A DNA stretch of 64,000 nucleotides from positions 25,189 through 89,188 of the forward strand of contig JAGXRZ010000053.1 of assembly GCA_018335585.1 (NCBI GenBank), read 5' to 3'. Below the pieces are notes generated by a model. That model ran no database searches. It was not told where the DNA came from and worked only from the letters and a program-made list of their open reading frames with translations. This document shows, in pieces, positions 3,913 through 54,940 of the stretch; the stretch's first letter is position 1; the number at the start of each line of letters is the position of its first letter. Position numbers and translations under genes: made by a program. This stretch comes from Selenomonadales bacterium. Lineage in GTDB: Bacteria > Bacillota > UBA994.

Positions 3913-3992
3913 GCAAGCTGCGCTTTCGGCTGGCAATAAGCGTCTTTGCGGCAGGAGTGGCTGCTCTGCGCAAGCAGAGCGGCCTATTGATG

Positions 3993-4105
3993 TTTGTGGC
4001 TTGTGGCTTGTCGCTTGTCGCTTGTGGCTTGCGGCTTGCGGCTTGTCGCTCAAAGCTCACCGCTCACCGCTCACAGCTCCGTTCACACTCAGTTCACATT
4101 CACCT
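3993..4105. repeat. Composite heptanucleotide tandem-repeat array (locus A): (GGCTTGT)x7, (CGCTCAC)x3, GTTCACA units
   Basis: Direct reading: gtggcttgtggcttgtcgcttgtcgcttgtggcttgcggcttgcggcttgtcgct caaagctcaccgctcaccgctcacagctc cgttcacactcagttcacattcacc. Confidence 0.9.
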
Positions 4106-13963: not shown

Positions 13964-15142
13964 ATGGCCATCAAAGTCTTTACCGTGTTTGGGGTACGGC
14001 CGGAGGCCGTGAAAATGGCCCCGGTCATTAGCGAGCTCGGGCGCTATCCTGAGTTTAGCGTTTCCGTGTGCGTCACCGGACAGCACCGCGCCATGCTAGA
14101 CCAGGTACTGCGCCTGTTTAGTATCGAGCCAAAATACGACCTAAACATTATGCGTGAGAGACAGACATTGCCCGAAACGTTTGCGCGGGCGCTTACCGGG
14201 CTTGACGAAATCTTTCGCGCCGACCGCCCGGACATTGTGCTAGTCCACGGCGATACGTCTACAACGCTCGCCGGCAGCCTGGCCGCTTTCTACAACCAAG
14301 TGCCGGTCGGGCACGTCGAAGCTGGGTTGCGTACGCACGAGAAGTACTTGCCTTTCCCCGAGGAAATAAACCGTAAGCTCACGGGCAGCCTAGCCGACCT
14401 GCACTTTGCTCCTACGCCGACGGCGAAGGGCAATCTGTTGCGCGAAGGCGTGCGAGAAGAGAGCATTTTCATTACCGGCAACACCGTCATCGACGCGCTA
14501 GCTACAACCGTGCGGCCGGATTACGAGTACCACGACGCCGCCTTGCGACAGGCGCTCGCCAAGACTACGGGACGATTGCTCTTAGTAGAAGTGCACCGGC
14601 GCGAGAACTGGGGCGAGCCGATGCAGGCCATGTGTTTGGCTTTGCTCGATGTGCTCGCGGCCTTCCCGGACTGCCGCATGATTTTTCCGGTTCACCTTAA
14701 CCCTGTGGTAAGGGAAGTGGTAATGCCTCATCTGGCGGGGCATCCGCAAATCACCCTGCTTGACCCGCTCGATACCGACGACTTCCACAACTTGATGGCG
14801 CGTTCTTACCTTATACTTACCGACTCAGGCGGACTGCAGGAAGAAGCCCCGGCGCTAGGCGTGCCGGTCTTGGTGATGCGCACCAGTACCGAGCGCCCCG
14901 AAGCCGTAGAGGCAGGCACCGTGCGCATCGTGGGGACGTCGCGCGCCGGGATTGTGGCGCATGCGAGCGAGTTGCTGGAAAGCAAAGCCGCCTACCAGTC
15001 CATGAGCACGGCGATTAACCCCTACGGCGACGGCCGCGCCGCAGGCCGCATTGCTCAAGCGTTGCTGCATTTCTTTGGCCGCACGCCGGAACGGCCAGCG
15101 GAGTGGAGAGGTGCCCAGTGCTCAGTGCCCAGTGCCCAGTAG
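13964..15142 (+). CDS. wecB: UDP-N-acetylglucosamine 2-epimerase (non-hydrolysing); the last ~10 codons come from the heptad repeat array
   Basis: MAIKVFTVFGVRPEAVKMAPVI at ATG 13964, in frame with ORF-track entry 13592..15142 (the upstream part of that entry overlaps the deaminase and is spurious). The C-terminus ...GAQCSVPSAQ* is encoded by the GTGCCCA repeats. Confidence 0.85.
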   Translation: MAIKVFTVFGVRPEAVKMAPVISELGRYPEFSVSVCVTGQHRAMLDQVLRLFSIEPKYDLNIMRERQTLPETFARALTGLDEIFRADRPDIVLVHGDTSTTLAGSLAAFYNQVPVGHVEAGLRTHEKYLPFPEEINRKLTGSLADLHFAPTPTAKGNLLREGVREESIFITGNTVIDALATTVRPDYEYHDAALRQALAKTTGRLLLVEVHRRENWGEPMQAMCLALLDVLAAFPDCRMIFPVHLNPVVREVVMPHLAGHPQITLLDPLDTDDFHNLMARSYLILTDSGGLQEEAPALGVPVLVMRTSTERPEAVEAGTVRIVGTSRAGIVAHASELLESKAAYQSMSTAINPYGDGRAAGRIAQALLHFFGRTPERPAEWRGAQCSVPSAQ

Positions 15143-15327
15143 TGGTAGCTGGCTCCTAGCTCCTGGCTCCTGGTAGAAAGACCCGCACTCCCCAGTTCAT
15201 GATTCACGATTCACGATTCATGATTTCTAACGCCTCAAGCCTAACGCCTCACCCTCTCAAAGCTCAAAGCTCAAAGCTCACAGCTCACAGCTCAAAGCTG
15301 GCGGCTGGCGCCTGGCGGCCGGCGGCC
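15111..15327. repeat. Composite heptanucleotide tandem-repeat array (locus C): (GTGCCCA)x4, (TGGCTCC)x3, (TTCAYGA)x4, (CTAACGCCTCA)x2, (CTCAAAG/CTCACAG)x6, (CTGGCGG)x4
   Basis: Direct reading of 15111-15327. Every block is built from 7-bp units. The module order is near-identical to locus E. Confidence 0.9.
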
Positions 15328-26324: not shown

Positions 26325-26966
26325 ATGATTCATAAGCACCGAGGGGATTTGGGCCAAGTGCCTCTTCTCTTAACGGCGTTTTCCATCATTATGGGCGCGA
26401 TTTATGGATTTAACGTCCCGCGTTTCGGAGATCCTATTTGGGCTACCGTGCCTTGGGGCATCGCTCTGGTGAGTCTGGGCATCATGGTTTTTGCGCTTAG
26501 AACGACTTCGCGTAACGCCTTAAGCCTCGGTCTCCAGTACGTAAGCTTAGGCCTGATAGCAGTGATGCTGATGCCTCCCATAGTGCGATGGTTTGACGGG
26601 CAAGGCTTAGGTGTGCAGGGAGCTACTCCTGTGGCCCATTGGGCGTGGGTAATTCCCCACCTAGTACTGGCACTGCCTTGGGGCATCGCTCTGGTGAGTC
26701 TGGGCGTCATGGTTTTGACGCTTAGAGTGACGTCGCGTAACGCCTTAAGTTTCGGTCTCCAGTACGTAAGCTTAGGTCTGATAGCAGTGATGCAGATCCC
26801 TCCCACAGTGCTATGGTTTGCGTTTGACGGGCAAGGCGTAGGGGAACACGGAGCTACTCCTGTGGGACATTGGGCGTGGGCAGTTCCCCACATAGTCCTA
26901 GCCCTACTAGCCCTGTATACGGGCTACCTCGTGCGCTCGAGGCCTAACGACATTCCGCGAGTCTAA
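26325..26966 (+). CDS. Hypothetical integral membrane protein made of two ~77-aa tandem repeats
   Basis: Repeat 1 and repeat 2 are ~85-90% identical (WGIALVSLG(I/V)MV...TSRNALS(L/F)GLQYVSLGLIAVM...GATPV(A/G)HWAW). The underlying DNA is a ~231-bp tandem duplication. Confidence 0.6.
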   Translation: MIHKHRGDLGQVPLLLTAFSIIMGAIYGFNVPRFGDPIWATVPWGIALVSLGIMVFALRTTSRNALSLGLQYVSLGLIAVMLMPPIVRWFDGQGLGVQGATPVAHWAWVIPHLVLALPWGIALVSLGVMVLTLRVTSRNALSFGLQYVSLGLIAVMQIPPTVLWFAFDGQGVGEHGATPVGHWAWAVPHIVLALLALYTGYLVRSRPNDIPRV

Positions 26967-29139: not shown

Positions 29140-30366
29140 GTGACATCGAGGAACTTTGCTGAACAGAAGCGCGTTATTCGTGAGATTATCAAGGACTTGC
29201 ACCAAGGGCTTTCGCTCGCGGAGGCAAAGCAGAGGATGGAGGACGAGGTTGGCACAATTTCATCGCTAGAAATTGCCGAAGTGGAGCAGTCGCTAATCGA
29301 CGAAGGTATGTCGCCAGACGAGATTAAGCGCTTCTGCAATGTGCATGCCCTGCTGTTTGAGTCGGCTCTGCAAGTGGACTTAACGAACGAAGAAAACCCA
29401 GCGCACCCCGTCAGTCTGCTCAAGCGGGAGAACAGAGAGATTGAGAAACTTACCGCAGCCCTGAGGGAGCTTAGAAAGCAGGCCGAAGCCGGACAAGTCG
29501 CAGGCTTTGTGCGGGAGGCACGCGTTCTGCTCAAGCGAGCGCAAGACCTCGACCTTCATTACACAAAAAAAGAACAGCTCTTGTTCCCTTTCCTCGAGAA
29601 ATATGGCTTTATGGGGCCCTCCAAAGTTATGTGGGGGAAGCACAACGAGATTAGGGATCTGCAAAAGCAGGCCACGGCTGCTCTGGAAGATGTCGATACG
29701 ACTGCGGAGGTCGATGCATTTGTCGCCGAGCGCCTGAACCCGCTTATCGACGAAGTGGACGGCATGATCTTCAAAGAAGAGAACATTCTCTTCCCCGCTG
29801 CGCTAGAAAAGCTTAAGGCCGACGACTGGATTGAGATTCTTAAAGAGAGCGACCAAGTGGGTTACGCCTACATCCGGCCGCACGCAGAGACCACCGAACT
29901 GATCGCCGCGCTTAAAAAAGCCACGGCGGACAAACCGGCAATTGTCGATGGTCAGCTTAGGTTTCCTTCCGGGCTTATCTCGCCTACGGTATTGATGCAT
30001 ATGCTAAACGCCCTGCCAGTGGACCTAACGTTTGTGGATCACGAGGATACAGTACGCTACTTCACCGAGAACAAAGAGCGCATCTTCGTGCGCACCCGCG
30101 CAGTAATCGGGCGCAAGGTGCAGAACTGCCACCCGCCCCAAAGCGTAGACATGGTGGAGAAAATTCTCACTGCGTTTAAAGAGGGCAGCCGCGACAGTGC
30201 GGAATTCTGGCTGACGCTTAAGGGACGCATGCTCTACATCGTCTTCTTCGCTGTCCGCGACGAACGCGGCAAGTACCTAGGCACACTCGAAGTAACGCAA
30301 GACATCACTAAGCTTAGACAACTGACCGGCGAACGGAAGCTGCTTGACGAAGGAGGATATTCCTAA
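29140..30366 (+). CDS. DUF438-family protein with hemerythrin-like cation-binding and PAS-like regions
   Basis: 408 aa; H...E/HHE-like motifs (HNEIRDL, FPFLEKYGF); GTG start. Confidence 0.5.
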   Translation: MTSRNFAEQKRVIREIIKDLHQGLSLAEAKQRMEDEVGTISSLEIAEVEQSLIDEGMSPDEIKRFCNVHALLFESALQVDLTNEENPAHPVSLLKRENREIEKLTAALRELRKQAEAGQVAGFVREARVLLKRAQDLDLHYTKKEQLLFPFLEKYGFMGPSKVMWGKHNEIRDLQKQATAALEDVDTTAEVDAFVAERLNPLIDEVDGMIFKEENILFPAALEKLKADDWIEILKESDQVGYAYIRPHAETTELIAALKKATADKPAIVDGQLRFPSGLISPTVLMHMLNALPVDLTFVDHEDTVRYFTENKERIFVRTRAVIGRKVQNCHPPQSVDMVEKILTAFKEGSRDSAEFWLTLKGRMLYIVFFAVRDERGKYLGTLEVTQDITKLRQLTGERKLLDEGGYS

Positions 30367-31445
30367 CGCCACGCCTTCTCTAGCTCCATCGTCAGCTCCG
30401 CCATTAACGCCGGGACGGTCGTAATTTCACGTATGCGATGCACTTCCGAACCGCAGAAGGCGAAGCCGTCGTGCATCTGCCCTTGCGCGGAGTTAATCAG
30501 GGCGGAGGCAATGCAATAGGGCACTTGGCTGGGGACGCATGGTTTTAGGCAGTTGGTCACGCAGGTGTCTGGCATGCGCTCGCCGCGCGCTACTTCAGCG
30601 AGGAAAGCGCTGCGTATCGCCCGCCCGGGCATACCGACGGGGCTGTCGATAATTACGACGTCTTCGGGCTTTGCTGCGACATAGGCGGCCTTAAACTCGT
30701 CGGGAGCATCGCATTCCTCGGTAGCCACAAAGCGGGTAGACATTTGTGCGCCGCTCGCCCCGAGCCGGAGTATGCGGGCGATGTCGAAGCCCGTGTAAAG
30801 ACCGCCGCCGGCAACTACCGGCACGGCTGCGGCTCGCTCCCCAAGCAACTGCCTAAGCGCTGCCAAAACCTCAGTGAGAATGGTCTCGAGGGAGAATTTG
30901 CCCGAAGTATCGGCTAGCTGTTCGCGCGAGAAGCCAAGGTGTCCTCCGGCTAGCGGCCCCTCCACCACAATCATGTCCGGCAGACGGGCGTGCTTGTTGA
31001 GCCACTGCTTTGTCACCAAGACTGCAGCCCGCGCTGAACTTACAATCGGGGCTATGCATGTACCGGAGCCGGCAACTAAAGCGGGCAGCGACAGCGGCAG
31101 GCCGGCGCCGCTAAAGATTATGTCGGCCTGTGCCGCTACAGCCGCCGCTACCATCTCTTCGTAATCGTTTACGGCTACCATAATGTTGACGCCTACGAGC
31201 CCGCCTAAGGCTATCTCCTTGGCGCGCTGGATATGCCACATTAGAGCTTCCCGGTTAGCCCTAAGCTTGTCTGTAGCGTAAGTGGGCCAACTAAACCCAA
31301 TCTCCACGCCGGAGATTACTCCCACACCCCCTGCCTTAGCTACTGCTCCTGCTAGCCGGGAGAGGGATATGCCGACACCCATGCCACCCTGAACGATAGG
31401 CACGCGCGCCACGTTGTTGCCGAACCTAAGCTCTGGTATTTTCAC
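30363..31445 (-). CDS. NPD-family (nitronate monooxygenase/FabK-like) FMN oxidoreductase, last gene of the fab operon
   Basis: VKIPELRFG...IVQGGMGVGIS; SD AAAGAGGTG 5 nt before GTG 31445. The ORF-track entry extends to 31520. Confidence 0.7.
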   Translation of the reverse strand: MKIPELRFGNNVARVPIVQGGMGVGISLSRLAGAVAKAGGVGVISGVEIGFSWPTYATDKLRANREALMWHIQRAKEIALGGLVGVNIMVAVNDYEEMVAAAVAAQADIIFSGAGLPLSLPALVAGSGTCIAPIVSSARAAVLVTKQWLNKHARLPDMIVVEGPLAGGHLGFSREQLADTSGKFSLETILTEVLAALRQLLGERAAAVPVVAGGGLYTGFDIARILRLGASGAQMSTRFVATEECDAPDEFKAAYVAAKPEDVVIIDSPVGMPGRAIRSAFLAEVARGERMPDTCVTNCLKPCVPSQVPYCIASALINSAQGQMHDGFAFCGSEVHRIREITTVPALMAELTMELEKAWR

Positions 31446-31557
31446 TGCGGCACCTCTTTTACTAAAGGGGAAGCAGGAGGGACTGTCCCTGCTGCTTCCC
31501 CGTTGTGGCTTTCTAGCCATAAAGTTAGACAGCTCTACGGCGCGGAAGTGTCGTTAC

Positions 31558-32796
31558 TTAGCGGCCGTATTTCGTTAGCACCAAGCTGCAGTTATGGCCG
31601 CCAAAGCCAAACGAGTTTTTAAGGGCGGCGCGAATGTGAAGACTCCGCGCACCTTCCGGCACATAGTCTAGGTCGCACTCGGGGTCGGGTGAAGTGCGGT
31701 TGATGGTCGGATGAACGATCCTTTCGTGGATGGATAATGCCGTCGCTATCAGCTCAACCGCGCCCGCCGCCCCCAGCAAATGGCCAACCATGGATTTAGT
31801 GGAGCTGATAGCTAGTCTCTGTGCATGCTCCCCAAAGACCTCTTTTATGGCCTTAGTTTCGAACTTGTCGTTAAGGTCGGTCGATGTGCCATGTGCGTTC
31901 ACATAGTCCACCTCGTGCGGGTTGAGCTTGGCATCAGCTAAGGCTTTCTGCATGCACCGCACAGTGCCTCGAACTTCCGGGTCAGGCGAAGTAATGTGAT
32001 GCGCGTCGTTAGTCGTGGCATAGCCCTTAACCTCGGCGTAGATGCGGGCTCCGCGGGATAAGGCGTGCTCAAGGCTCTCTAGCACCAGTACTCCGGCACC
32101 CTCGCCCATCACAAAGCCGTCGCGCTCCTTGTCGAACGGGCGACTGGCTCGTTTCGGGTCATCATTCCTCGTGCTTAGGGCCCGCGCCGCGATAAAGCCG
32201 GCAATAGCGAGCGGGGTAATGGCGCACTCGGTGCCACCTGCAAGCATCACTTCGCTGTCGCCGCGCTCAATTACGCGGCACGCGTCGCCTACGGCTTGGG
32301 CGCCGCTGGCGCAGGCGGAGACGATGTCGCTCGAGGGGCCCCTGAGGCCAAAGGTAATCGCAATTTGTCCGGCCGCCATATTGCCAATCATCATCGGCAC
32401 AAAGAACGGGCTGACCTTCGCAGGGCCCTTTTCGCGCAGCACGGCGAACTGGTTCTCGAGCGTCTCCATGCCGCCGATGCCTGCCCCTACGTAGACGCCG
32501 ATTTGTGCGGCGTTGTCGGGTGTTACGCTTAGCTCGGCGTCCTCTAAGGCCAGGGAGGCCGCGGCGACGCCGTATTGGGCAAAGCGGTCCATACGCTTGG
32601 CCTCTTTTTTGTCCATGTATTGGCTCGGGTCAAAGTCCTTGACCTCGGCGGCAATCTTGGTGGCAAAGTCCGCAGTGTCAAAACGCGTAATGACGTCGAC
32701 GCCTGACGTGCCAGCTAAGAGCGCCTGCCAAAAGGAGCGGTGACCTGTGCCTATGGGGGACACAACGCCAAGGCCGGTAATCACAACCCTTTTCAT
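31558..32796 (-). CDS. fabF: 3-oxoacyl-ACP synthase II
   Basis: MKRVVITGLGVVSPIG; active-site Cys (SACASG) and His motifs. Confidence 0.9.
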   Translation of the reverse strand: MKRVVITGLGVVSPIGTGHRSFWQALLAGTSGVDVITRFDTADFATKIAAEVKDFDPSQYMDKKEAKRMDRFAQYGVAAASLALEDAELSVTPDNAAQIGVYVGAGIGGMETLENQFAVLREKGPAKVSPFFVPMMIGNMAAGQIAITFGLRGPSSDIVSACASGAQAVGDACRVIERGDSEVMLAGGTECAITPLAIAGFIAARALSTRNDDPKRASRPFDKERDGFVMGEGAGVLVLESLEHALSRGARIYAEVKGYATTNDAHHITSPDPEVRGTVRCMQKALADAKLNPHEVDYVNAHGTSTDLNDKFETKAIKEVFGEHAQRLAISSTKSMVGHLLGAAGAVELIATALSIHERIVHPTINRTSPDPECDLDYVPEGARSLHIRAALKNSFGFGGHNCSLVLTKYGR

Positions 32797-32808
32797 CTGC
32801 ATCTCCTC

Positions 32809-33042
32809 CTAGGCTAGCTTTGCAGATACGTAAGCAACGGCGTCTTCTACGCTCACAATCTTACCCATATCCGCTTCAGGAATGGAAATGCCAAACTCCT
32901 CTTCTAAGCCCATAACCAGCTCAACTAAGTCGAGCGAGTCGGCACCGAGGTCTGCCTTAAACGCGGCAGTAAGCACAACATCCTCCTCTTTTACGGACAG
33001 CTTGTCAGCAATAAGTGGGCGCATGCGATCAAATAGTTCCAT
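32809..33042 (-). CDS. acpP: Acyl carrier protein
   Basis: LGADSLDLVELVMGLEEEFGI phosphopantetheine-attachment motif. Confidence 0.9.
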   Translation of the reverse strand: MELFDRMRPLIADKLSVKEEDVVLTAAFKADLGADSLDLVELVMGLEEEFGISIPEADMGKIVSVEDAVAYVSAKLA

Positions 33043-33062
33043 GTCAACACCTCCTTTCAGGG

Positions 33063-33794
33063 TCATATGTTCATGCCGCCATCAATGGAGAGCACTTGCC
33101 CGGTGATGTAGTCTGCCTGAGGTCCGGCCAGGAACCCGACGGCAGCCGCTACGTCCGCGGGAGAGCCCGCACGGCGGAGGGGAATAGCTTCTAAGAGGCC
33201 AGCCTTAACTTCGGCCGGCAGGGCGTCAGTCATGGCTGTTTCAATAAAACCGGGCGCAACGGCATTACAGGTTATCCCACGACCGGCCAGCTCTTTGGCC
33301 AGGCTCTTAGTCAGACCGACTAAGCCCGCCTTCGAGGCGGCGTAGTTAGCTTGTCCGGCATTGCCACACAGGCCGACTACCGAGGAAATGTTGATGATTT
33401 TGCCGCTCCGCTGTCTAAGCATCACTTTGGCGGCCGCCCGGCTTACCAGGAAGGCCCCGGTTAAGTTAACGTCAATCACAGCCTGCCAGTCCGCTAACTT
33501 CATGCGCAGCAGCAGCGCATCGCGCGTAATGCCGGCATTGTTGACAACTACGTCAAGGCGGCCATAGCGCTTGAGAATCTCGGCAAGCATGGCCTCGACC
33601 CCGGATTCGTTGGCCACGTCAGCCATTACGGCAAGGGCACCACCGCCGTTGCCGGAGAGCTCCTGCACTAAGCTTTCTGCCTGTGCTCGATTGTTGCTGT
33701 AATGCACCACAACCACAAACCCAAGGCGAGCGAGCTCGCGGCAGACCGCCAGACCGATGCCTCCCGTTCCGCCGGTAACGAGGGCAACTTTCAT
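33063..33794 (-). CDS. fabG: 3-oxoacyl-ACP reductase (SDR)
   Basis: TGGTGGIG NAD(P)-binding motif; catalytic YAASK motif. Confidence 0.9.
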   Translation of the reverse strand: MKVALVTGGTGGIGLAVCRELARLGFVVVVHYSNNRAQAESLVQELSGNGGGALAVMADVANESGVEAMLAEILKRYGRLDVVVNNAGITRDALLLRMKLADWQAVIDVNLTGAFLVSRAAAKVMLRQRSGKIINISSVVGLCGNAGQANYAASKAGLVGLTKSLAKELAGRGITCNAVAPGFIETAMTDALPAEVKAGLLEAIPLRRAGSPADVAAAVGFLAGPQADYITGQVLSIDGGMNI

Positions 33795-34726
33795 GCTAAT
33801 GCCTCCAGTAGCTTATCAAGTCCCGCCTTATTTTCTATGCTTAACGCCTTGACTTCTTTGTCGATGCGCTTAACAAACGAAGCCAGTGAATTCCCCGGGC
33901 CCAGCTCGACGAAAGTACGGTACCCGTCGGCAAGTAAGCGGCGAATGGAATCTTCAAAGTGCACCGGCCTACTGACTTGTGCGACTAACAAGTCTGCTAG
34001 CTTTGCATCCGTGTGGTAGTCTGCAGTTACGTTGCTAACTACCGGTAAGCGAAGCGGTGTAAAGTCGGCCTGCGCCAAAAACGCACGCAAAGCTTCCCCG
34101 GCGCCCTGGAGGAGGGCGGTATGGAACGGTGCACTTACCGGGAGCTTTACCGTCCGCTTGGCACCGAGTGCGGCGCACTTGCTTAGCGCGGCATCCACGG
34201 CAGCCGCCTCGCCTGCTATGACTACTTGCCCCGGGCAATTGTAGTTAGCGATGGCCACTAGGCCAAGTCCTAGTTCCTGCACATTGGCGCAGGTCTGCTC
34301 AACTAGTTGTGTCTCTAGTCCCATTACCGCCGCCGCGGCGCCGTAACCTATGGGCACCGCCGCCTGCATGAGCCTGCCGCGCTCGCGTACCAGGCAGACC
34401 GCCTTCTCAAAGCGAAGTGCGCCGGCTGCTACCAGAGACGCATATTCGCCTAGCGAAAGCCCGGCTGTCGCTGTCGGTGTAATGCCATGCTTCTCTAATA
34501 CACGCAGCAGAGCGACGCTTGTAGTTAGAATCGCCGGCTGTGTAATCTCTGTCTGCGCGAGCTGCTCCGCTGGGCCACCCCAAACTACATCGCGCAGAGA
34601 AAAACCAAGGGCCCGGTCCGCCTCGGCAAAGACCTCCGCCGCTTCACCAAACTGCCCGGCAATCTCCTTGCCCATGCCGACATATTGGCTACCTTGACCG
34701 GGAAACAAAAACACTAGTTTTTCCAT
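33791..34726 (-). CDS. fabD: Malonyl-CoA:ACP transacylase
   Basis: FPGQGSQYVGMG; GLSLGEY active site. Confidence 0.9.
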   Translation of the reverse strand: MEKLVFLFPGQGSQYVGMGKEIAGQFGEAAEVFAEADRALGFSLRDVVWGGPAEQLAQTEITQPAILTTSVALLRVLEKHGITPTATAGLSLGEYASLVAAGALRFEKAVCLVRERGRLMQAAVPIGYGAAAAVMGLETQLVEQTCANVQELGLGLVAIANYNCPGQVVIAGEAAAVDAALSKCAALGAKRTVKLPVSAPFHTALLQGAGEALRAFLAQADFTPLRLPVVSNVTADYHTDAKLADLLVAQVSRPVHFEDSIRRLLADGYRTFVELGPGNSLASFVKRIDKEVKALSIENKAGLDKLLEALA

Positions 34727-35649
34727 ATGCCCCTCCCAAGTAACCTCTCCGTTTGTTCGACTAGAGACAACATCAGTTCTTGTGTCGAGAGAATGCTCTT
34801 AACCAGCCCTGCCGACTGCCCGGCCATTAACGAGCCCTTGTGGACGTCTCCCTGCTCGAATGCCAGTCGCAACCTGCCCGCGCCCAGCTTATGTAGCTCC
34901 TCTTCATCGGCGCCTTGGCGCTCTAGGACTGCGATTTCGCGCGTCAGTTGATTCTTTAGCGCGCGCACGGGGTGGCCAATTGAGGCACCGCAGATTATGG
35001 CATCGCGGTCGCCTGCCGCGACGATAGCCTCTTTGTAGTTCGCATGGGCTTCGCATTCGGTGGTGCAGATAAAGCGCGTGCCCAACTGCACGCCTTCTGC
35101 GCCTAGCATGAGCGCAGCGGCGATGCCGCGTCCGTCGGCGATGCCTCCGGCGGCGATTACTGGTACAGTTACAGCGTCGACTATCTGGGGGACCAAGGCC
35201 ATGGTAGAGATCTCGCCGATATGCCCCCCGGCCTCGTTGCCTTCGGCGACAATCGCGTCCGCCCCCATGCGCTCCAGCCGCCTAGCCAAGGCAACGGAGG
35301 CCACCACGGGAATAACCTTGCATTCCGCAGTCTTAAAAGCCTCCATGTAGGGACCTGGGCTTCCGGCACCGGTGGTAACTACAGGCACGCGCTCTTCGAC
35401 GACAACCTGTACTACGTCTTTGACCGCCGGCGACAACAACATTACGTTTACGCCGAAAGGCATGTCTGTTAGCCTACGAATTTTCCTGATTTCCTGCCGC
35501 ACCCATTCGCCCGGTGCGTGGCCGGCTCCCACAATGCCAAGGCCGCCCGCATCGGAGACGGCTGCGGCAAGAGCTGCTGTTGCCACCCACGCCATGCCGC
35601 CTTGCATAATCGGGTACTTAGTACCGAGCAGCGTTCTTACTCTGTCCAT
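34714..35649 (-). CDS. fabK: Enoyl-ACP reductase II (FMN-dependent, FabK)
   Basis: MDRVRTLLGTKYPIMQGGMAWVATAALAAAVSDAGGLGI is collinear with S. pneumoniae FabK. The ORF-track entry is extended at the N-terminus. Confidence 0.85.
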   Translation of the reverse strand: MDRVRTLLGTKYPIMQGGMAWVATAALAAAVSDAGGLGIVGAGHAPGEWVRQEIRKIRRLTDMPFGVNVMLLSPAVKDVVQVVVEERVPVVTTGAGSPGPYMEAFKTAECKVIPVVASVALARRLERMGADAIVAEGNEAGGHIGEISTMALVPQIVDAVTVPVIAAGGIADGRGIAAALMLGAEGVQLGTRFICTTECEAHANYKEAIVAAGDRDAIICGASIGHPVRALKNQLTREIAVLERQGADEEELHKLGAGRLRLAFEQGDVHKGSLMAGQSAGLVKSILSTQELMLSLVEQTERLLGRGIWKN

Positions 35650-35653
35650 ACCC

Positions 35654-36643
35654 TTAGCGCACCTGCCATTCCAATAAGCAGGAGCCCCACGTGAGCCCGC
35701 CGCCAAATCCCACCAGCATAACCTTGTCGCCCGTTCTAAGCCTCACTGCGCCAAACTCTTCGTGCAAAGCAACAGGAATCGACGCAGACGACATATTGCC
35801 ATATCTGTCAAGATTTACAGCGATTTTCTCCGGCGATAGCTTTAGTCGCTTAGCGAAGCCCTCGATAATGCGTAAATTCGCCTGATGAGGTATGTAGTAG
35901 TCGACCGCCTCAAAGCCGAGCCCCAGTTTGGCAAGCAGCTGTCCGCACGCCTCCTCTACTATCCGCACGGCGAACTTGTACACCTCTTGACCGTTCATGT
36001 GCACGTAGTGGCGGCGGCCGTTTACAGTCTCCAGCGAAGCAGGCAAGCGCGAACCCCCGGCGGGTAGTGTCAGCACATCGCCCGCCGTGCCATCAGCCCC
36101 GAGGTGTACCCCTAGTATGCGAGGCCCATTTCCATCCGCGCTTACGACGGCCGCACCCGCGCCGTCGCCAAACAAGACGCAGGTATTGCGGTCTTGCCAG
36201 TTTACAATGCGGGACAGCGTCTCCGCGCCAACTATTAAGACATGCCGCCAACTGCCAGACTCTATAGCCTGCTTGGCAAGCTGTAGCCCATACACAAATC
36301 CCGTACAAGCCGCGCCTAGGTCAAAAGCAATTGCGTTATGTGCACCTAACTGGCCCTGAATAATACACGCCGTAGAGGGGAACAACATATCTGGAGTGAC
36401 TGTGCAAACAATAATCGCGTCAAGGTCTGCGGGTTGTAGGCCTGCGGCTTCAATCGCTTGCTTGGCTGCCGGGTAAGACAAGTCCGAGGTAGCCTGCTCC
36501 GGCAGAGCGATGCGGCGCTCCCTGATGCCGGTCCTGCTCTCTATCCACTCTGCCGTGGTGTCTATGACACTTTCTAGCTCCTTGTTCGTCAAGACACGTG
36601 TCGGCACATACGCGCCGGTGCCTGAGATCACTGCTGTAGGCAC
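35654..36643 (-). CDS. fabH: 3-oxoacyl-ACP synthase III
   Basis: True start is GTG ~36643 (VPTAVISGTGAYVP) with SD GGGAGG. The ORF-track start at 36700 reads through the promoter and operator. Confidence 0.85.
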   Translation of the reverse strand: MPTAVISGTGAYVPTRVLTNKELESVIDTTAEWIESRTGIRERRIALPEQATSDLSYPAAKQAIEAAGLQPADLDAIIVCTVTPDMLFPSTACIIQGQLGAHNAIAFDLGAACTGFVYGLQLAKQAIESGSWRHVLIVGAETLSRIVNWQDRNTCVLFGDGAGAAVVSADGNGPRILGVHLGADGTAGDVLTLPAGGSRLPASLETVNGRRHYVHMNGQEVYKFAVRIVEEACGQLLAKLGLGFEAVDYYIPHQANLRIIEGFAKRLKLSPEKIAVNLDRYGNMSSASIPVALHEEFGAVRLRTGDKVMLVGFGGGLTWGSCLLEWQVR

Positions 36644-36674
36644 GATACACCTCCCATTTCGTTTCACATGTTGA

Positions 36675-36739
36675 AATATCCCTGTGCACACAATGTGCAC
36701 AGGGATATTATACTTACTCGGCGAGCGTTTGTCAACGAA
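36675..36739 (-). promoter_or_regulatory. fab operon consensus sigma-A promoter (TTGACA-17-TATAAT) overlapping a 16-3-16 perfect palindrome AATATCCCTGTGCACAcaaTGTGCACAGGGATATT
   Basis: Minus-strand reading: cgTTGACAaacgctcgccgagtaagTATAATatccctgtgcacattgtgtgcacagggatattt, then SD and fabH. The palindrome spans -10 and +1. Confidence 0.65.
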
Positions 36740-36766
36740 GCAAAAAGCTCCGTCCCTTTTGCTTCA
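36737..36766. repeat. 34-bp hairpin repeat copy 1 (AACGAAGCAAAAAGCTCCGTCCCTTTTGCTTCAC)
   Basis: 9-bp stem GAAGCAAAA/TTTTGCTTC with an 11-nt loop. It overlaps the stop codon of the Schlafen-like gene and abuts the fab -35 element. Confidence 0.85.
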
Positions 36767-38200
36767 CTTGGTGACAAAGCGCTGGTAACGGCTGCGAGGT
36801 CTTTCGGGCATCGTGAGGCGAATTTTCCCGGCATCAATTAGGGGCTGCACTAACTTGGACATCGTGTAGTATTGCGAGAATCCGGTAAAGCGGGTCAGCT
36901 CATCCCTCGACCTCGGAATGCTGCAAAACGTCAGTAACGCTGCCACCTGGTCGTGGCTTGCTTCTCTAATCGCCGCATGTAAGTTGTTTCTGAATGTGAC
37001 GACGAACTCACCCCTTTGGGCTGCAAAAAGCGGTGCAGGCAACTTGGCCTGATCACATTCTCTGCGGATTGTCGGGATGCCTGAATATCGATTCTCTGTA
37101 ACGGAAAGAAGTTCCAGTATGTTAGCAAGAGTCGGGTTGCGGGTGTCAGGACGCACCTTGCCAAGAGAATCGATGGAGATGTTCCCATATAGTCCGCCGC
37201 TGTTTGTCACCTCCATGCGGTCGCTATACATGACGATACGCACTGGGACAGATTCGGAGTGGATGCTGTAATCTCGATGCACGAGCGCGTTTAGGATGGC
37301 CTCGCGAACCGCCAAGGGAGGAAACTCTGGTCTGTCAACTCGCTTGCCGTCATCCCCAATGACGGTTGTTAGTCGTCCATTCCTTCGCACGAAGTCCACA
37401 GCAGCCTCTAACATGTCGGGTATAGGGCCCGTGATTCGCTGATTGGCTATGAAACGCTCGCCGGCAGTACCGGTATCCCCCATGCTCGTCCCGGGGACGA
37501 CGACTGCCGTGATGCACAGCTGCGGAAAGTTTGCCTGGGGATAGTGAGACAGCGCCATGAGGCCAGCTAGTGTAGGGGTTCCGTTCACCGTCACGCCCAT
37601 AAGCTCCAAAATGCCCTCATCAGATACGTTGTCGGCAATATTCCTTCGGTCGAGCTTAACTGCCCTTAAGTATCGCTCCACACGAGTGGGGTCAAAAAAT
37701 GACAGTCTTGCACTAACCACCGGCCGTAGGTCGTCACGGATACGTTTTCGAAAGGCGTCGAAGCTGTATATCTCATATTCACTCATCAGATCATTAGACT
37801 CCCCGACGCGAATGTACGATCCCTTGTTCCGGCCGACCCCTCTGTAATAGACTGGACGTTGGTCGGCGTCGACACTTGGTATTTCAGCCGCGACGACATG
37901 GTGCCCGTCTATCGTCGCAATGGTGAACAATGGGCGAACGATGGGCTCCATCTGTTTGCACTGCTCGGTAACCTTCCTCTGCAAGTCGTGCGGATCATAT
38001 ACGCCAACAGCACTAAAGCCCGCGCGCTCATCAAGACCAAACACAATCACCCCACCGTCATCTTGGTTAGAGAATGCGGACAATGTGCCGAACAGGCGAG
38101 TAGGGCAGCCATCACGGGCAGACTTCACCTCGATGCCCTGTGATTCGGTCTTCTGCGCTTGGATTTGATGCACCAAATCGACTAGCTCCTCAACCTGCAT
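36764..38200 (-). CDS. Schlafen/AlbA_2-domain ATPase with a C-terminal HATPase_c_4/wHTH region (the 'RecG-like putative transcriptional regulator' family)
   Basis: MQVEELVDLVHQIQAQKTESQGIEVKSA at ATG ~38200 with SD GGAGGTG; ~478 aa. The ORF-track entry extends to 38254. Confidence 0.6.
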   Translation of the reverse strand: MQVEELVDLVHQIQAQKTESQGIEVKSARDGCPTRLFGTLSAFSNQDDGGVIVFGLDERAGFSAVGVYDPHDLQRKVTEQCKQMEPIVRPLFTIATIDGHHVVAAEIPSVDADQRPVYYRGVGRNKGSYIRVGESNDLMSEYEIYSFDAFRKRIRDDLRPVVSARLSFFDPTRVERYLRAVKLDRRNIADNVSDEGILELMGVTVNGTPTLAGLMALSHYPQANFPQLCITAVVVPGTSMGDTGTAGERFIANQRITGPIPDMLEAAVDFVRRNGRLTTVIGDDGKRVDRPEFPPLAVREAILNALVHRDYSIHSESVPVRIVMYSDRMEVTNSGGLYGNISIDSLGKVRPDTRNPTLANILELLSVTENRYSGIPTIRRECDQAKLPAPLFAAQRGEFVVTFRNNLHAAIREASHDQVAALLTFCSIPRSRDELTRFTGFSQYYTMSKLVQPLIDAGKIRLTMPERPRSRYQRFVTK

Positions 38201-38219
38201 CTTCCCACCTCCTACCACT

Positions 38220-38346
38220 ATTATGACAACAATGCGGCAAAAATACAACAGCAAACGTTATTTTACGCAACAACAGTCCAAATTAACGCAACAACAGCGC
38301 GAAATAACGCAACAACAGGCCAACTTGAACCACATTGTTGCGTTAA
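38220..38346 (-). promoter_or_regulatory. Promoter (TTGTAT-17-CATAAT, TG-extended) preceded by three 21-bp-phased direct repeats TAACGCAACAACAG and one inverted copy
   Basis: -10 at 38220-25 and -35 at 38243-48 on the minus strand. Repeats at 38265-76, 38286-97 and 38307-18; inverted copy at 38333-46. Confidence 0.5.
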
Positions 38347-38360
38347 CTGAGTTTATCAAC

Positions 38361-38390
38361 GAAGCAAAAAGCTCCGTCCCTTTTGCTTCA
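38361..38390. repeat. 34-bp hairpin repeat copy 2
   Basis: aacgaagcaaaaagctccgtcccttttgcttcac, identical to copy 1. Confidence 0.85.
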
Positions 38391-38450
38391 CACCCATTTC
38401 CGAAAAAATGCTCAGTAGCCCTCCGGCGAGGAAACCAAACCAAAGTCCCT

Positions 38451-40235
38451 TCATGCGCACACCTCCGCCACATCACTTTGGCAGAGCACTTTTCCATGCT
38501 CAAATAGGCTGGCGTAATGTCCCTGTCGTGCCAAGAGCTCGGCGTGCGGCCCTGCCTCGACCACGCGCCCTCCATGTATAACGGCGATGCGATCCACGCG
38601 ACTTAAGAGATGCAGGCGATGCGTGACAATAATCTTGGTCGACGGAAGGCGCAATATGCAGTCTGTCACCAACCGCTCCGTTTTCATATCGAGCGCGGCC
38701 GTCGCTTCGTCTAAGAGCAAAACCGCGGCTCCGCGCAAAATGGCTCGCGCCAACGCTATCCGCTGTCGCTGCCCGCCCGATAGGGTACCCCCGCCCTCGC
38801 CTATAATCGTGTCGTAGCCCTGCGGCAGTGCCTTAATAAACTCGTCCGCTCCGGCCTGTGCGGCCGCCGCCCGAATATCTGTCTGCGTGGCGTCAAGATT
38901 GCCTAACCGGATGTTCTCTGCGATTGAGGTCGGCAAGAAGAAGTCATCCTGCGGGACATACGCCATATGCCGGCGCACGCAGGCGATTGACTCGGCGTCT
39001 AAGGCTTGACCGAAGCAAGAGACGACTCCGGCACTCGGTTGCCTAAAGCCAAGCAGGAGCTCCAGTAAGGTGCTTTTGCCCGCGCCGCTCGCCCCCACGA
39101 TGGCTAACGCCTCTCCGGTTCGCACCTTGAGGCTGAGCTCGCGCAACACGTCAGTCGCACCCGTAAACCCAAACGATACCCTATCGAATTCCACTGCGTA
39201 CTCCAGAGCGGCAGGCGGAGGCGGGCAGACCTTAGGCGGTAATGGCTCCACAGGCAGCTCCAGGACTTCCAGTACTCGTTCCGCCGCTTCACTGGCCGCT
39301 TTAATGTTTGCCAAGCTCTGCGCCACTCCCGAGAGCGGCCAGGTCAAGGCATTAAGCAGGTTTAGCAGTACAAAGAGCTGCCCTAAGCTCAGTCTGCCTG
39401 CGATAACGTCAAGCCCGCCTACGCCAAACAGCACGAGAAAAGGCACGACCGAGAACACTGTCATGGCTGCGTGCATCTGGCCCCGCAGCAAGGCGAGCTT
39501 AGCCGCATTGCCTACGGCGCTTTCCTGCAGGGCACTCATCCGTGCAACAAGGTAGTCGCGCATATTGTAGACCTTGGCAATGACTATTCCGGCCACCGTA
39601 TCTTGCGCGAGAACATTCACCTTAGCTATATCGCTTTGCCATAACTTGAGGACCGCACCCATGCGCCCGCCTAGCCAAGATGCGACAAACATCATGAGCG
39701 GCGCCATCGCCACCGTCAGCAATGTAACTTTCCATGACACGAGCAGCATTACCACCAGCGAGGCGACAAAGCCTAAGCTGCCTTGTGCGAGGTTTGGCAG
39801 GTGGCGCGCGAAGGCCGACCGCACGACTTGTGCGTCATTGCTAAGGCGAGAAACATACTCCCCGCTGTGCGTTTGTTCGAGCGCAGGGATGCGAGCCCGG
39901 CCAAGGTGCATGGCCACTTGCGCGCGCAGGCCGTGCATAACGCTCTCCGCGAGTTCTCCGGTAAGCAGTTGCCGCAGTAGCAAAGCAATGTCTCCGCCAA
40001 CCCAAACCAAAACTAACAGCAAAAACGTCTGCCCAAACGCCTCTCTGTCGGCAAGGATGCCTACATCAATAATTGCCCCAAGCTGCCGAGCTAAGAGCAC
40101 CCCCAGCGCCACTTGCAGAGCGATAACCAGCAACGCCCCAAGCGCTGTGATTCTATGCTGCCTGACGTACCCCCATAGTGCTTGCTGCCCTCGCCTTGGT
40201 TCCTTACTTGCTGCCGCCCGAGGTTTCCCCTGCAT
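38451..40235 (-). CDS. Fused TMD-NBD ABC exporter (MsbA/multidrug-type half transporter)
   Basis: Walker A GASGAGKST; signature LSGGQRQRIALARAI; Walker B LLLDEATAALD; six N-terminal TM helices. Confidence 0.85.
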   Translation of the reverse strand: MQGKPRAAASKEPRRGQQALWGYVRQHRITALGALLVIALQVALGVLLARQLGAIIDVGILADREAFGQTFLLLVLVWVGGDIALLLRQLLTGELAESVMHGLRAQVAMHLGRARIPALEQTHSGEYVSRLSNDAQVVRSAFARHLPNLAQGSLGFVASLVVMLLVSWKVTLLTVAMAPLMMFVASWLGGRMGAVLKLWQSDIAKVNVLAQDTVAGIVIAKVYNMRDYLVARMSALQESAVGNAAKLALLRGQMHAAMTVFSVVPFLVLFGVGGLDVIAGRLSLGQLFVLLNLLNALTWPLSGVAQSLANIKAASEAAERVLEVLELPVEPLPPKVCPPPPAALEYAVEFDRVSFGFTGATDVLRELSLKVRTGEALAIVGASGAGKSTLLELLLGFRQPSAGVVSCFGQALDAESIACVRRHMAYVPQDDFFLPTSIAENIRLGNLDATQTDIRAAAAQAGADEFIKALPQGYDTIIGEGGGTLSGGQRQRIALARAILRGAAVLLLDEATAALDMKTERLVTDCILRLPSTKIIVTHRLHLLSRVDRIAVIHGGRVVEAGPHAELLARQGHYASLFEHGKVLCQSDVAEVCA

Positions 40236-40341: not shown

Positions 40342-40371
40342 GAAGCAAAAAGCTCCGTCCCTTTTGCTTCA
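40342..40371. repeat. 34-bp hairpin repeat copy 3
   Basis: agcgaagcaaaaagctccgtcccttttgcttcac, located between the ABC gene and spoIIID. Confidence 0.85.
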
Positions 40372-52412: not shown

Positions 52413-52442
52413 GAAGCAAAAGGGACGGAGCTTTTTGCTTCA
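52413..52442. repeat. 34-bp hairpin repeat copy 4 (inverted orientation, preceded by a partial duplicate)
   Basis: agaagcaaaagggaagcaaaagggacggagctttttgcttcac. Confidence 0.85.
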
Positions 52443-53513: not shown

Positions 53514-54725
53514 ATGCGACACTTTTTTACCTCAGAGTCAGTGACAGAAGGGCACCCCGATAAAATCTGCGATCAAATTGCCGACGCCGTACTAGACGCC
53601 ATTCTCACGCAAGACAGCACCGCCCGCGTAGCGTGCGAAACGGCGGTCACTACCGGACTTGTCCTGGTCATGGGCGAGATATCCACTACCTGCTATGTGG
53701 ACATCCCGCGTATAGTGCGTGACACCGTGCGCGAAATCGGCTACACGCGGGCTAAGTATGGCTTTGACGCCGAGACGTGTGCAGTAATTACGTCCATCGA
53801 CGAGCAGTCGCCCGATATCGCCCAAGGCGTCAACCAGGCACTAGAGCAAAGGGAGGGTGGCGAGGCGCCCGACCAAGCCTCGAGCACCGGTGCCGGCGAC
53901 CAAGGCATGATGTTTGGCTATGCCTGTGCAGAGACGCCGGAATACATGCCTTTGCCCATTAGTCTGGCCCATAGCCTCGCACGCCGCCTGAGCGCCGTGC
54001 GCAAACAGCGCATTATCCCTTATCTCCGGCCCGATGGCAAAACTCAAGTCACCGTGGAATACGAGGGACATCGCCCCGTGCGGGTTGACACGGTTGTAGT
54101 CTCGGCGCAACACAAACCGGAGGTCACACTCCCGACCATTCGCGAGGACATCATTGCGCAGGTCGTGCGCCACTGCATCCCCGCGCACTTGCTCGACCAC
54201 AAGACAAAGTTCCTTATAAATCCAACGGGCCGATTTGTGGTGGGCGGGCCGCAGGGCGACAGCGGCCTCACCGGGCGCAAAATCATGGTCGACACTTACG
54301 GTGGTGCAGCACGCCACGGCGGCGGAGCGTTTTCCGGCAAAGACCCAACCAAAGTTGATCGCTCGGCGGCGTATGCGGCGCGCTATGTGACGAAAAACAT
54401 CGTAGCCGCAGGGTTAGCGGAGCGCTGTGAGTTGCAGGTCGCCTACGCCATTGGGGTGGCGAAGCCCGTCTCGATTATGGTCGATACCTTTGGCACGGGT
54501 GCAGTAAGCTCAGACAAGCTAGCCCAGATTGTAGGCCGCCATTTTGACTTACGTCCGGCAGCGATTATCGCGCACCTAGGCCTGAGGGCGCCAATCTATC
54601 GCCAAGTAGCGGCTTATGGCCACATGGGGCGCCCTGACCTTGACCTCCCCTGGGAGCGACTTGATAAGGTGGCGGAGTTAAGGCAGTATGTGGGTGCCCA
54701 GTGCCCAGTGCCCAGTGCTCAGTAG
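53514..54725 (+). CDS. metK: S-adenosylmethionine synthetase; the C-terminal 10 residues come from the heptad repeat array
   Basis: [10 protein letters not shown]; GAGDQG; [18 protein letters not shown]. The terminal ...[12 protein letters not shown] is encoded by the GTGCCCA repeats. Confidence 0.95.
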
Positions 54726-54900
54726 AACGGGGGACTCTTGGCTCCTGGCTCCTGGTAGAGGGAGTGCTTAGCGGTTAAAGCGTACGGCTTACAGCGTACA
54801 GCTTACAGCCATCAGCGGACAGCCACTCCGCAGTGGCAGTTCATGATTCACGATTCCTGATTCATGATTGCTCAATGCTCACCGCTCACCGCTCAAAGCT
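54694..54900. repeat. Composite heptanucleotide tandem-repeat array (locus E): (GTGCCCA)x4, (TGGCTCC)x2, (GCTTACA)x3, (TTCAYGA)x4, (CGCTCAC)x2
   Basis: Module order mirrors locus C. Confidence 0.9.
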
Positions 54901-54940
54901 AAAAAGGTGGAGAGGCCAAAGCCTTTCCACCTTTTCATTT
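54901..54940. terminator. Bidirectional terminator between metK and nhaC
   Basis: aaaaaGGTGGAGAGGCcaaaGCCTTTCCACCtttt. Confidence 0.65.

Follow-up and report, generated by a model that had tools for sequence, protein, structure and literature searches.

The locus considered here raises a simple question: what controls a fatty-acid synthesis operon that has no regulator gene beside it? The 64,000-nt stretch of DNA analysed (hereafter the window; Selenomonadales bacterium, contig JAGXRZ010000053.1, positions 25,189 to 89,188 of the forward strand) contains a fab operon for type II fatty-acid synthesis (FASII), the promoter of which overlaps a perfect palindrome. A handful of factors are known to control transcription of bacterial fatty-acid synthesis genes, namely FapR, FabT, FadR/FabR, DesT and FasR; to our knowledge, no such regulator has been described for many Firmicutes lineages. 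The comparison reported below indicates that the palindrome is very probably a protein operator of some kind. That it serves the fab operon as the operator for an XRE-like regulator not described before, the gene of which lies elsewhere in the genome, is also probable, with a somewhat larger margin of doubt.

The palindrome and the promoter of fabH

The inverted repeat AATATCCCTGTGCACA-CAA-TGTGCACAGGGATATT is located at positions 36675–36709 and consists of 16-nt arms with 100% complementarity separated by a 3-nt spacer. No match to it was obtained in dinucleotide shuffles of the window, even at up to 3 mismatches. On the minus strand the order of elements is TTGACA, 17 nt, TATAAT, atccctgtgcacattgtgtgcacagggatattt, GGGAGG and the GTG start codon of fabH at 36643–36641. 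The promoter agrees with the consensus at 12 of 12 positions and is the only such site within 36300–38600. The original prediction of a perfect 16-3-16 palindrome lying over the -10 hexamer and the transcription start of a consensus promoter of this layout is confirmed, with the overlap with the -10 hexamer comprising its last 3 nt and the start itself being predicted. The elements are as follows.

36730–36735, minus strand: -35 hexamer TTGACA, constant in 7 lineages despite the varying sequence of the 17-nt spacer
36707–36712, minus strand: -10 hexamer TATAAT, its last 3 nt (AAT) being the outermost left-arm bases of the palindrome
36675–36709, no strand: full 16-3-16 palindrome, read as an extended operator, the outer 5 pairs of which covary among lineages
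36684–36700, no strand: putative operator core GTGCAC-N5-GTGCAC (GTGCAC-ACAAT-GTGCAC), the only strict GTRYAC-N5/6-GTRYAC site of the window
36700, minus strand: predicted transcription start, a G 7 nt past the -10 hexamer, placed by the geometry conserved in 7 of 7 fabH promoters
36660–36676, minus strand: leader element TTTCAACATGTGAAACG, seen only in the window clade and placed after the operator and ahead of the Shine-Dalgarno sequence
36650–36655, minus strand: Shine-Dalgarno sequence GGGAGG, assigned by sequence

The predicted start (G36700) is the first base of the first GTGCAC, and the core includes two TGTGCACA boxes (36683–36690 and 36694–36701). Neither a second palindrome nor a second copy of the core occurs in the 64-kb window; a search allowing up to 3 mismatches likewise gave no further palindrome, half-site or TGTGCACA-N3-TGTGCACA. 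The strict motif is found once, at the fabH promoter, against a first-order Markov expectation of 0.037. It had been proposed that an operator would be contradicted if the palindrome were unique, without another copy close to lipid genes and without a transcription factor binding to it. This uniqueness is true of the window and fails across genomes, where the core is found again at fabH in 7 lineages and in front of the candidate regulator's lipid-related operon, class-III aminotransferase genes and an NMO gene.

The fabH promoters compared were those of the window and of six fetched loci (L007, L008, L009, L013, L010 and L011), the FabH proteins of which are 90–68% identical to that of the window. 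In all 7 lineages TTGACA-17-TAtAAT with unrelated spacers is followed by TGTGCAC-N5/6-GTGCACA, with the initial G of the first GTGCAC 7 nt past the -10 hexamer. The cores read as follows.

Window: cTGTGCAC-attgt-GTGCACAg
L007: cTGTGCAC-gtgtt-GTGCACAg
L008: tTGTGCAC-gtttt-GTGCACAa
L009: tTGTGCAC-gtctt-GTGCACAa
L013: cTGTGCAC-aaaatt-GTGCACAg
L010: tTGTGCAC-aaaatc-GTGCACAa
L011: tTGTGCAC-gaaaat-GTGCACAa

Pair counting on this alignment shows that the 7 inner pairs of the palindrome are invariant. Five outer pairs vary on both sides yet stay complementary (12 cells, a value reached in 0 of 500 shuffles), and this signal collapses in controls with the partner slid by 1–3 columns. As outer arms, the window and L007 have ATATCCC/GGGATAT, L008 and L009 have ATACCCT/AGGGTAT, and L011 has ATTAGCT/AGCTAAT. 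In L010 and L013 the promoter and the core are retained with arms of only 8–10 bp, and therefore the long arms are dispensable. As judged from the alignment, the fabH element is two-layered, with a core conserved in sequence and outer arms conserved in symmetry only. The complementarity of the outer arms could result from selection for symmetry (e.g. binding of a tetramer or shape readout), from a cruciform or from template-switch quasipalindrome correction.

The leader element TTTCAACATGTGAAACG is kept in L007–L009 as TTTCAAYATRTGAAACG and is lacking in L010, L011 and L013. It might form a short stem of 5 bp or be bound by a protein as a further site. One Logan contig (L004) starts inside the palindrome at GGGATATTT (window position 36682), which is an assembly break and hence a technical artefact.

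The candidate regulator and the promoter of its gene

GTDB genomes were scanned for TTGTGCAC-N5/6-GTGCACAA, and the results given here refer to the matches listed. Most of them are uninformative, being a conserved coding sequence of Acidobacteriota (…TTCGATTGTGCACCCTGGGTGCACAAAGCC…), oriC-like clusters of DnaA boxes in Actinomycetota or chance matches. The informative ones are L039, L020, L114 and L131. In L039, a Bacillota metagenome-assembled genome (MAG), TACAAT-aag-TTGTGCACAGAGTTGTGCACAA stands directly upstream of a gene for a helix-turn-helix (HTH) protein of 180 residues, and the gene order is dus, HTH gene, a 300-residue gene without a Pfam match and a gene resembling acyl-(acyl carrier protein) (acyl-ACP) reductase. 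Homologues of these three genes of L039 are situated in L010 and L013 directly after fabF, in or next to the motif-headed operon, with dus upstream, and L151 has the same arrangement of the HTH gene with fab. As a separate observation, TTGTGCACCCAGGGTGCACAA occurs inside a conserved coding sequence of many Acidobacteriota (L017, L026, L037 and at least ~25 further loci among the matches listed), in some loci in two copies; its occurrence suggests a repeated or mobile gene, unrelated to the fab finding.

Retrieval with the HTH protein as the sole query yielded the assembly loci L134–L148 and 80 metagenomic loci (L149–L228, 489 kb). Their synteny is dus, HTH gene, 300-residue gene, in part of the cases the acyl-ACP-reductase-like gene, and greA. 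The strict motif GTRYAC-N5/6-GTRYAC occurs 46 times in the 489 kb of metagenomic loci, with 1.0 site expected from shuffles. All but one of these sites (45 of 46) are found ~30–130 nt upstream of the HTH gene, directly after a TAnAAT -10 hexamer in the sequences inspected (an example is gctaaaatatgtatGTACACaatgttGTGCACatatacta). Most of the other loci among the 80 have a degenerate form such as tgtgaacaatgatGTGCAC, and the assembly loci L134–L147 show the same placement of the motif. Altogether ~50 independent metagenomic loci have the bipartite GTRYAC-N5/6-GTGCAC past the -10 hexamer of the HTH gene and ahead of its ribosome-binding site. The geometry of these promoters (TAAAAT-atgtat-GTACAC, TAGAAT-gtat-GTATAC) matches that of the window (TATAAT, 6 nt, GTGCAC). 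The window site has the form GTRYAC-N5/6-GTGCAC of the HTH-regulator motif and its position, 3–6 nt downstream of the -10 hexamer and covering the start.

Most sites upstream of the HTH gene consist of GTAYAC and GTGCAC, which are non-complementary at one position. It is therefore the sequence and not the pairing that is conserved, and this points to recognition by a protein. In this position the motif is a textbook sign of a repressor acting on its own gene through an operator. Long arms are sporadic at the sites of the HTH gene and its operon (20 bp in L189, 12 bp in L209).

The candidate regulator is a protein of ~174 residues with an XRE-like HTH and a Rossmann-like C-terminal domain. The Pfam search returned only sub-threshold matches to HTH_31/HTH_3 at residues 26–52; the NCBIfam search gave no match past its cutoffs, also for the clade protein P0145 described below, and neither database showed a MarR/FabT signature. 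By BLASTP, P0145 has no similarity to the genuine FapR of locus L012 (NF003359, 220.7 bits). A sequence search of the PDB gave weak matches to HTHs of XRE and controller (C) proteins and no informative homologue. The AlphaFold2 model built from a 20-sequence alignment (mean predicted local distance difference test, pLDDT, 85.7) comprises a short β-hairpin with a three-helix HTH (residues 13–53), a disordered linker (54–58) and a Rossmann-like β-α-β domain (62–173), which presumably binds an effector. Foldseek found no match in the PDB below E = 1e-3, the weak ones being to PhyR, to the coenzyme A (CoA)-binding domain of the succinyl-CoA synthetase α subunit and to a Rex-family repressor. Among 1.84 billion proteins the family has 182 representatives at 50% identity (E <= 1e-3). 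All members with a named source are Bacillota, including Thermaerobacter, Dethiobacter, Methylomusa and Syntrophothermus MAGs. Literature searches found no description of this HTH family or of the motif. The regulator family, the motif and the regulon appear to be new, a repressor operator on a fab promoter being already known as such.

The proposed mechanism is that of a repressor operator overlying the transcription start of the fab promoter. The centres of the GTGCAC hexamers are 11–12 bp apart, i.e. about one helical turn, a spacing at which a single HTH dimer could reach consecutive major grooves; since every hexamer is a palindrome in its own right, two dimers might bind as well. The likely binder is the ~174-residue protein with its XRE-like HTH, flexible linker and Rossmann-like, supposedly effector-binding domain. 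Its gene would be situated elsewhere in the genome, and in the relatives it lies between dusB and greA, where it heads the operon of the HTH, 300-residue and acyl-ACP-reductase-like genes. Protein bound from +1 to ~+20 and touching the -10 hexamer would block RNA polymerase, in the manner of FapR, and switch FASII off, and a ligand, plausibly an acyl-thioester or a nucleotide, might either relieve or enforce the binding. The presence of the same motif at the same place in the promoter of the regulator gene implies negative autoregulation. The two perfect GTGCAC hexamers at fab, compared with the weaker GTAYAC and GTGCAC pair at the regulator's own promoter, suggest tighter repression of fab.

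Further members of the predicted regulon are indicated by the same sites. Perfect sites precede class-III aminotransferase genes in at least 3 unrelated Bacillota (L020, 4754–4775; L114, 2687–2708; L209, 4438–4455), and in L209 the aminotransferase gene comes after the HTH and 300-residue genes. In L131 a perfect site precedes an NMO gene that shares 53% identity with the gene ending the fab operon of the window. For the acyl-ACP-reductase-like gene there is a match to PigE, a fusion of a reductase and an aminotransferase, in the N-terminal part of the latter. Together with the aminotransferase sites this match places the regulon, speculatively, within lipid metabolism, and a module leading from acyl-thioester to aldehyde and to amine might be governed by the same regulator, which is likewise a speculative proposal.

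The link between the candidate and the window clade is provided by locus L135. It encodes P0145, which is 70% identical to the regulator of L010, and a hairpin repeat, GAAGCAAAAGGGACGGAGCCTTTTGCTTC, directly follows the HTH gene there; in L136 the assembly has a gap within this element. Elsewhere in the 228 loci examined (1.59 Mb) the repeat is confined to the window clade (L001, L007, L008 and L009). Since L135 combines the regulator with a repeat private to the clade, we infer from the gene content of these loci that the window clade possesses the regulator, placed between dusB and greA; this applies to the clade, and for this exact genome the gene is a prediction. Two other proteins, P0142 and P0131, were considered as proteins of the window organism and rejected, as the samples differ.

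Alternative readings and known systems

Several points weigh against an operator of the candidate regulator. The protein is not encoded in the 64-kb window (tblastn), and it has been located in the clade relative L135 and not in this exact genome. The autoregulatory spacer of L135 is 6 nt long versus 5 nt at fabH of the window clade, and a rigid dimer might reject one of the two; 5-nt spacers are also present upstream of the HTH gene in L196 and L223. Finally, the outer 8–9 bp are outside the family-wide motif yet are kept complementary, and simple sequence-specific recognition gives no account of this.

The element might instead work mainly at the level of RNA. 5'-terminal stem-loops stabilise Bacillus and E. 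coli mRNAs, and a transcript starting at 36700 folds into a 7-bp 5'-terminal hairpin (GUGCACA-UUG-UGUGCAC), which could protect the fab mRNA from 5'-end-dependent decay or modulate its translation. The constant position of the G of GTGCAC, exactly 7 nt past the -10 hexamer in 7 of 7 lineages, agrees with such a role, as does the self-complementarity of GTGCAC, by which two copies always pair. However, the sequence of the hexamer is invariant though any stem would do, and the left outer arm, which covaries, precedes the predicted start and hence would be left out of the transcript. The central mismatch between the hexamers (GTAYAC/GTGCAC) at ~30 sites upstream of the HTH gene also disagrees with a stem. 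Folding of the leader as a whole does not surpass that of shuffled sequence (z = -0.08), and the leader has no Rfam family, the sole match being a spurious miRNA hairpin at 26 bits versus a gathering score of 99. We regard an RNA element in place of an operator as unlikely; an RNA stem could coexist with the operator as a secondary effect, perhaps adding stability. A structure formed by the DNA itself, i.e. a cruciform which under negative supercoiling sequesters the -10 hexamer and the start, or functionless outer arms kept perfect by template-switch quasipalindrome correction around a functional inner inverted repeat, seems to us just as improbable as a full explanation. It would account for the five outer pairs that change with complementarity kept (12 cells; 0 of 500 shuffles), for the lack of relation between the outer arms of different lineages (ATATCCC, ATACCCT, ATTAGCT), for the central spacer being always A/T-rich and for the sporadic long arms at L189 and L209. 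On the other hand, the promoter and the core persist in L010 and L013 although the arms there are only 8–10 bp long, in vivo extrusion of cruciforms from 16-bp arms is rare, and the invariant GTGCAC with its link to the HTH gene is left without account. This explanation is best seen as an addition which covers the outer arms and not as a replacement of the operator.

Two other readings keep a protein on the DNA and change its identity. The palindrome might be a divergent operator of FapR or FabT with the regulator gene elsewhere, which we consider highly improbable. The palindrome had been said to match neither the FapR nor the FabT box, and this is borne out: it resembles neither the 17-bp FapR box (TTAGTACCAGATACTAA-like) nor the FabT box (AGTTTGA-N3-TCAAACT-like). 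A genuine fapR-plsX-fabH locus (L012, Hydrogenibacillus-like) has TTAGCACCAGGTCATAA upstream of fapR, which we take to resemble the FapR box, and the GTGCAC motif is absent there. The motif co-occurs, moreover, with an HTH protein that is unlike FapR and has no MarR domain. Thus of the options in the original prediction, the operator, its overlap with the promoter and a regulator encoded elsewhere stand, a different repressor is favoured, namely an HTH protein unlike FapR or MarR, and the divergent FapR/FabT operator is disfavoured. The TGTGCACA boxes could also be read as DnaA boxes (TTGTGCACA versus TTATCCACA or TTGTCCACA) coupling fab to the replication initiator. Pairs of TTGTGCACA do occur among TTGTCCACA/TGTGGACAA boxes in oriC-like regions of Actinomycetota and some Bacillota (L015, L028, L030, L106 and L124, among the matches listed). 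Nevertheless, none of the four possible 9-mers of the window and L007 has the required T at position 1 (CTGTGCACA, GTGTGCACA; in the window also ATGTGCACA), and the 9-mers of the window do not fit TTWTNCACA or TTGTCCACA with T at positions 1–2. The flanking base is C or T depending on the lineage, and a DnaA box gives no account of the constant placement between the -10 hexamer and the ribosome-binding site of one HTH gene in ~50 lineages. The chance of DnaA boxes here is accordingly very small. A connection with restriction-modification (GTGCAC is an ApaLI site, and C-protein matches were weak) was considered and rejected, given that the site is not avoided (21 copies of GTGCAC in the window) and that the context is housekeeping.

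The preferred reading, an operator of the XRE-like protein, has parallels in known systems. FapR is a global repressor with boxes inside, or directly downstream of, the fap promoters, its own included, and combines an N-terminal HTH with a C-terminal ligand-sensing domain (PMC5052256). The present system is similar in having a putative inverted-repeat operator on the fab promoter and on the promoter of the candidate gene, and in the combination of an HTH with a sensor-like domain. It differs in that the FapR of Bacillus and Staphylococcus joins a winged helix of DeoR type to a hot-dog, thioesterase-like domain for malonyl-CoA, in contrast to the XRE-like HTH and Rossmann-like domain of the candidate; the operators are unrelated, and in the window clade the candidate gene is beside neither plsX nor fabH. 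FabT, a MarR-family protein of streptococci, enterococci and some clostridia, represses the fabH/fabK-type FASII cluster through a promoter palindrome and is autoregulated. Unlike FabT, the MarR gene of which heads the fab cluster and which uses acyl-ACP as corepressor, the candidate lacks a MarR domain, there is no adjacent MarR gene and the palindrome is another one.

The redox-sensing repressor Rex (winged helix with a Rossmann NADH domain) likewise unites DNA binding with a Rossmann-like sensor, and the outer bases TTGTG...CACAA are found on its promoters too. The weak Foldseek match of the candidate to the Rex-family protein RSP (E = 0.057, TM 0.29) is not significant, nor is there a significant match in sequence. 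Unlike the Rex site (TTGTGAA-N4-TTCACAA), the palindrome has 11 nt between TTGTG and CACAA versus 8, the inner bases differ and the context is lipid synthesis, not fermentation. XRE/Cro repressors and the C proteins of restriction-modification systems share the HTH type and two palindromic boxes about one helical turn apart over their own promoters; the candidate is distinguished from them by the additional 115-residue α/β domain and by its housekeeping (dusB, greA) and lipid context without a phage or restriction-modification module.

A broader proposal may be put forward tentatively, with chances which we place slightly below even. The narrowly distributed family, as a lipid master regulator with an XRE-like HTH and a Rossmann-like domain, may replace FapR and FabT in deep-branching, mostly uncultured Bacillota and, through GTGCAC-N5/6-GTGCAC operators at the start, co-regulate FASII with the acyl-ACP-reductase/aminotransferase module (fatty aldehydes and amines), the symmetry of the long palindrome being selected. 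The operator of such a regulator at fab would itself be a third, unrelated control of membrane lipid synthesis in Gram-positive bacteria, beside FapR and FabT. The analysis offers a concrete candidate pair of operator and regulator for a clade without a cultured model (a 35-bp site and a 174-residue protein with a confident structure model), as well as a predicted regulon of the fab operon, the regulator's own operon, class-III aminotransferases and the NMO/FabK-like gene. Confirmation would give lipid homeostasis another sensor domain, probably with an effector logic of a new kind, and possibly an orthogonal repressor/operator part. The covarying outer arms offer a natural setting in which to ask if selection or mutation produces dyad symmetry that reaches past the contacted bases.

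The fab operon and its surroundings

The proposed regulated unit was delineated by Pfam and by the gene calls on the identical contig L001, as given below.

30363–36643, minus strand: fab operon
36643–35654, minus strand: fabH
35649–34714, minus strand: fabK (NMO)
34726–33791, minus strand: fabD
33794–33063, minus strand: fabG
33042–32809, minus strand: acpP
32796–31558, minus strand: fabF
31445–30363, minus strand: second NMO gene, the last of the operon
36737–36765, no strand: hairpin repeat copy 1 (GAAGCAAAAAGCTCCGTCCCTTTTGCTTC), abutting the -35 hexamer

An identical FabH is encoded on a 106-kb ENA metagenome contig and on several Logan contigs. Its closest relatives belong to uncultured "Firmicutes/Bacillota bacterium" MAGs, and the nearest cultured organism is Hydrogenibacillus (62% identity). 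No fapR, plsX or fabT adjoins fabH in the window, and fapR/plsX were not seen in the window or in loci L001 and L007–L011. The absence of an adjacent regulator, and of fapR-plsX or fabT before fabH, had been predicted correctly. The gene upstream of the promoter encodes SLFN/AlbA_2 and HATPase_c_4 domains and is preceded by an ABC exporter, spoIIID, mbl and fabZ; in the relatives the genes upstream of fabH are mbl, a HEPN/MNT pair, dus or a hydrolase. The SLFN/AlbA_2-HATPase_c_4 gene was considered as the cognate regulator and rejected, as it is absent from L007, L008 and L009, which retain the palindrome. This absence, together with the assembly breaks at the flanking hairpin, marks it as an accessory insertion.

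The promoter abuts hairpin copy 1 beside this accessory gene, just as originally described; the copy is probably a terminator or insulator for the upstream gene. The 29-nt repeat (GAAGCAAAAGGGACGGAGCTTTTTGCTTC) occurs at 36737–36765, 38361–38389, 40342–40370 and 52413–52441 in both orientations, its loop is inverted in some copies and short-read assemblies break exactly there. Copies 1 and 2 flank the SLFN gene and have in common 10 extra nt, GTTGAYAAAC, that include the -35 hexamer, which suggests insertion or duplication by recombination between the copies. The interval between copy 2 and the start of the SLFN gene (38255–38350) holds a 21-nt unit repeated three times in tandem (ACGCAACAACAG...) together with an inverted repeat TTAACGCAACAA/TTGTTGCGTTAA; from their arrangement they look like an operator array for the accessory gene.

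Some features elsewhere in the window were also observed. The open reading frame (ORF) at 26325–26966, between murA and spoIID, has no Pfam match and contains two internal repeats of ~230 nt with 85–91% identity (26449–26595/26674–26820 and 26591–26674/26822–26905). Intergenic 7-nt tandem arrays (GCTCACC/GCTCAAA/GGTGCCC-type) are present at 3987–4079, 15110–15307 and 54693–54901, and a similar (GCGGACA)n array follows the HTH gene in L134. A Cas3 gene (HD nuclease and helicase), any further CRISPR-Cas genes being expected outside, is located at the edge of the window (272–2851, minus strand).

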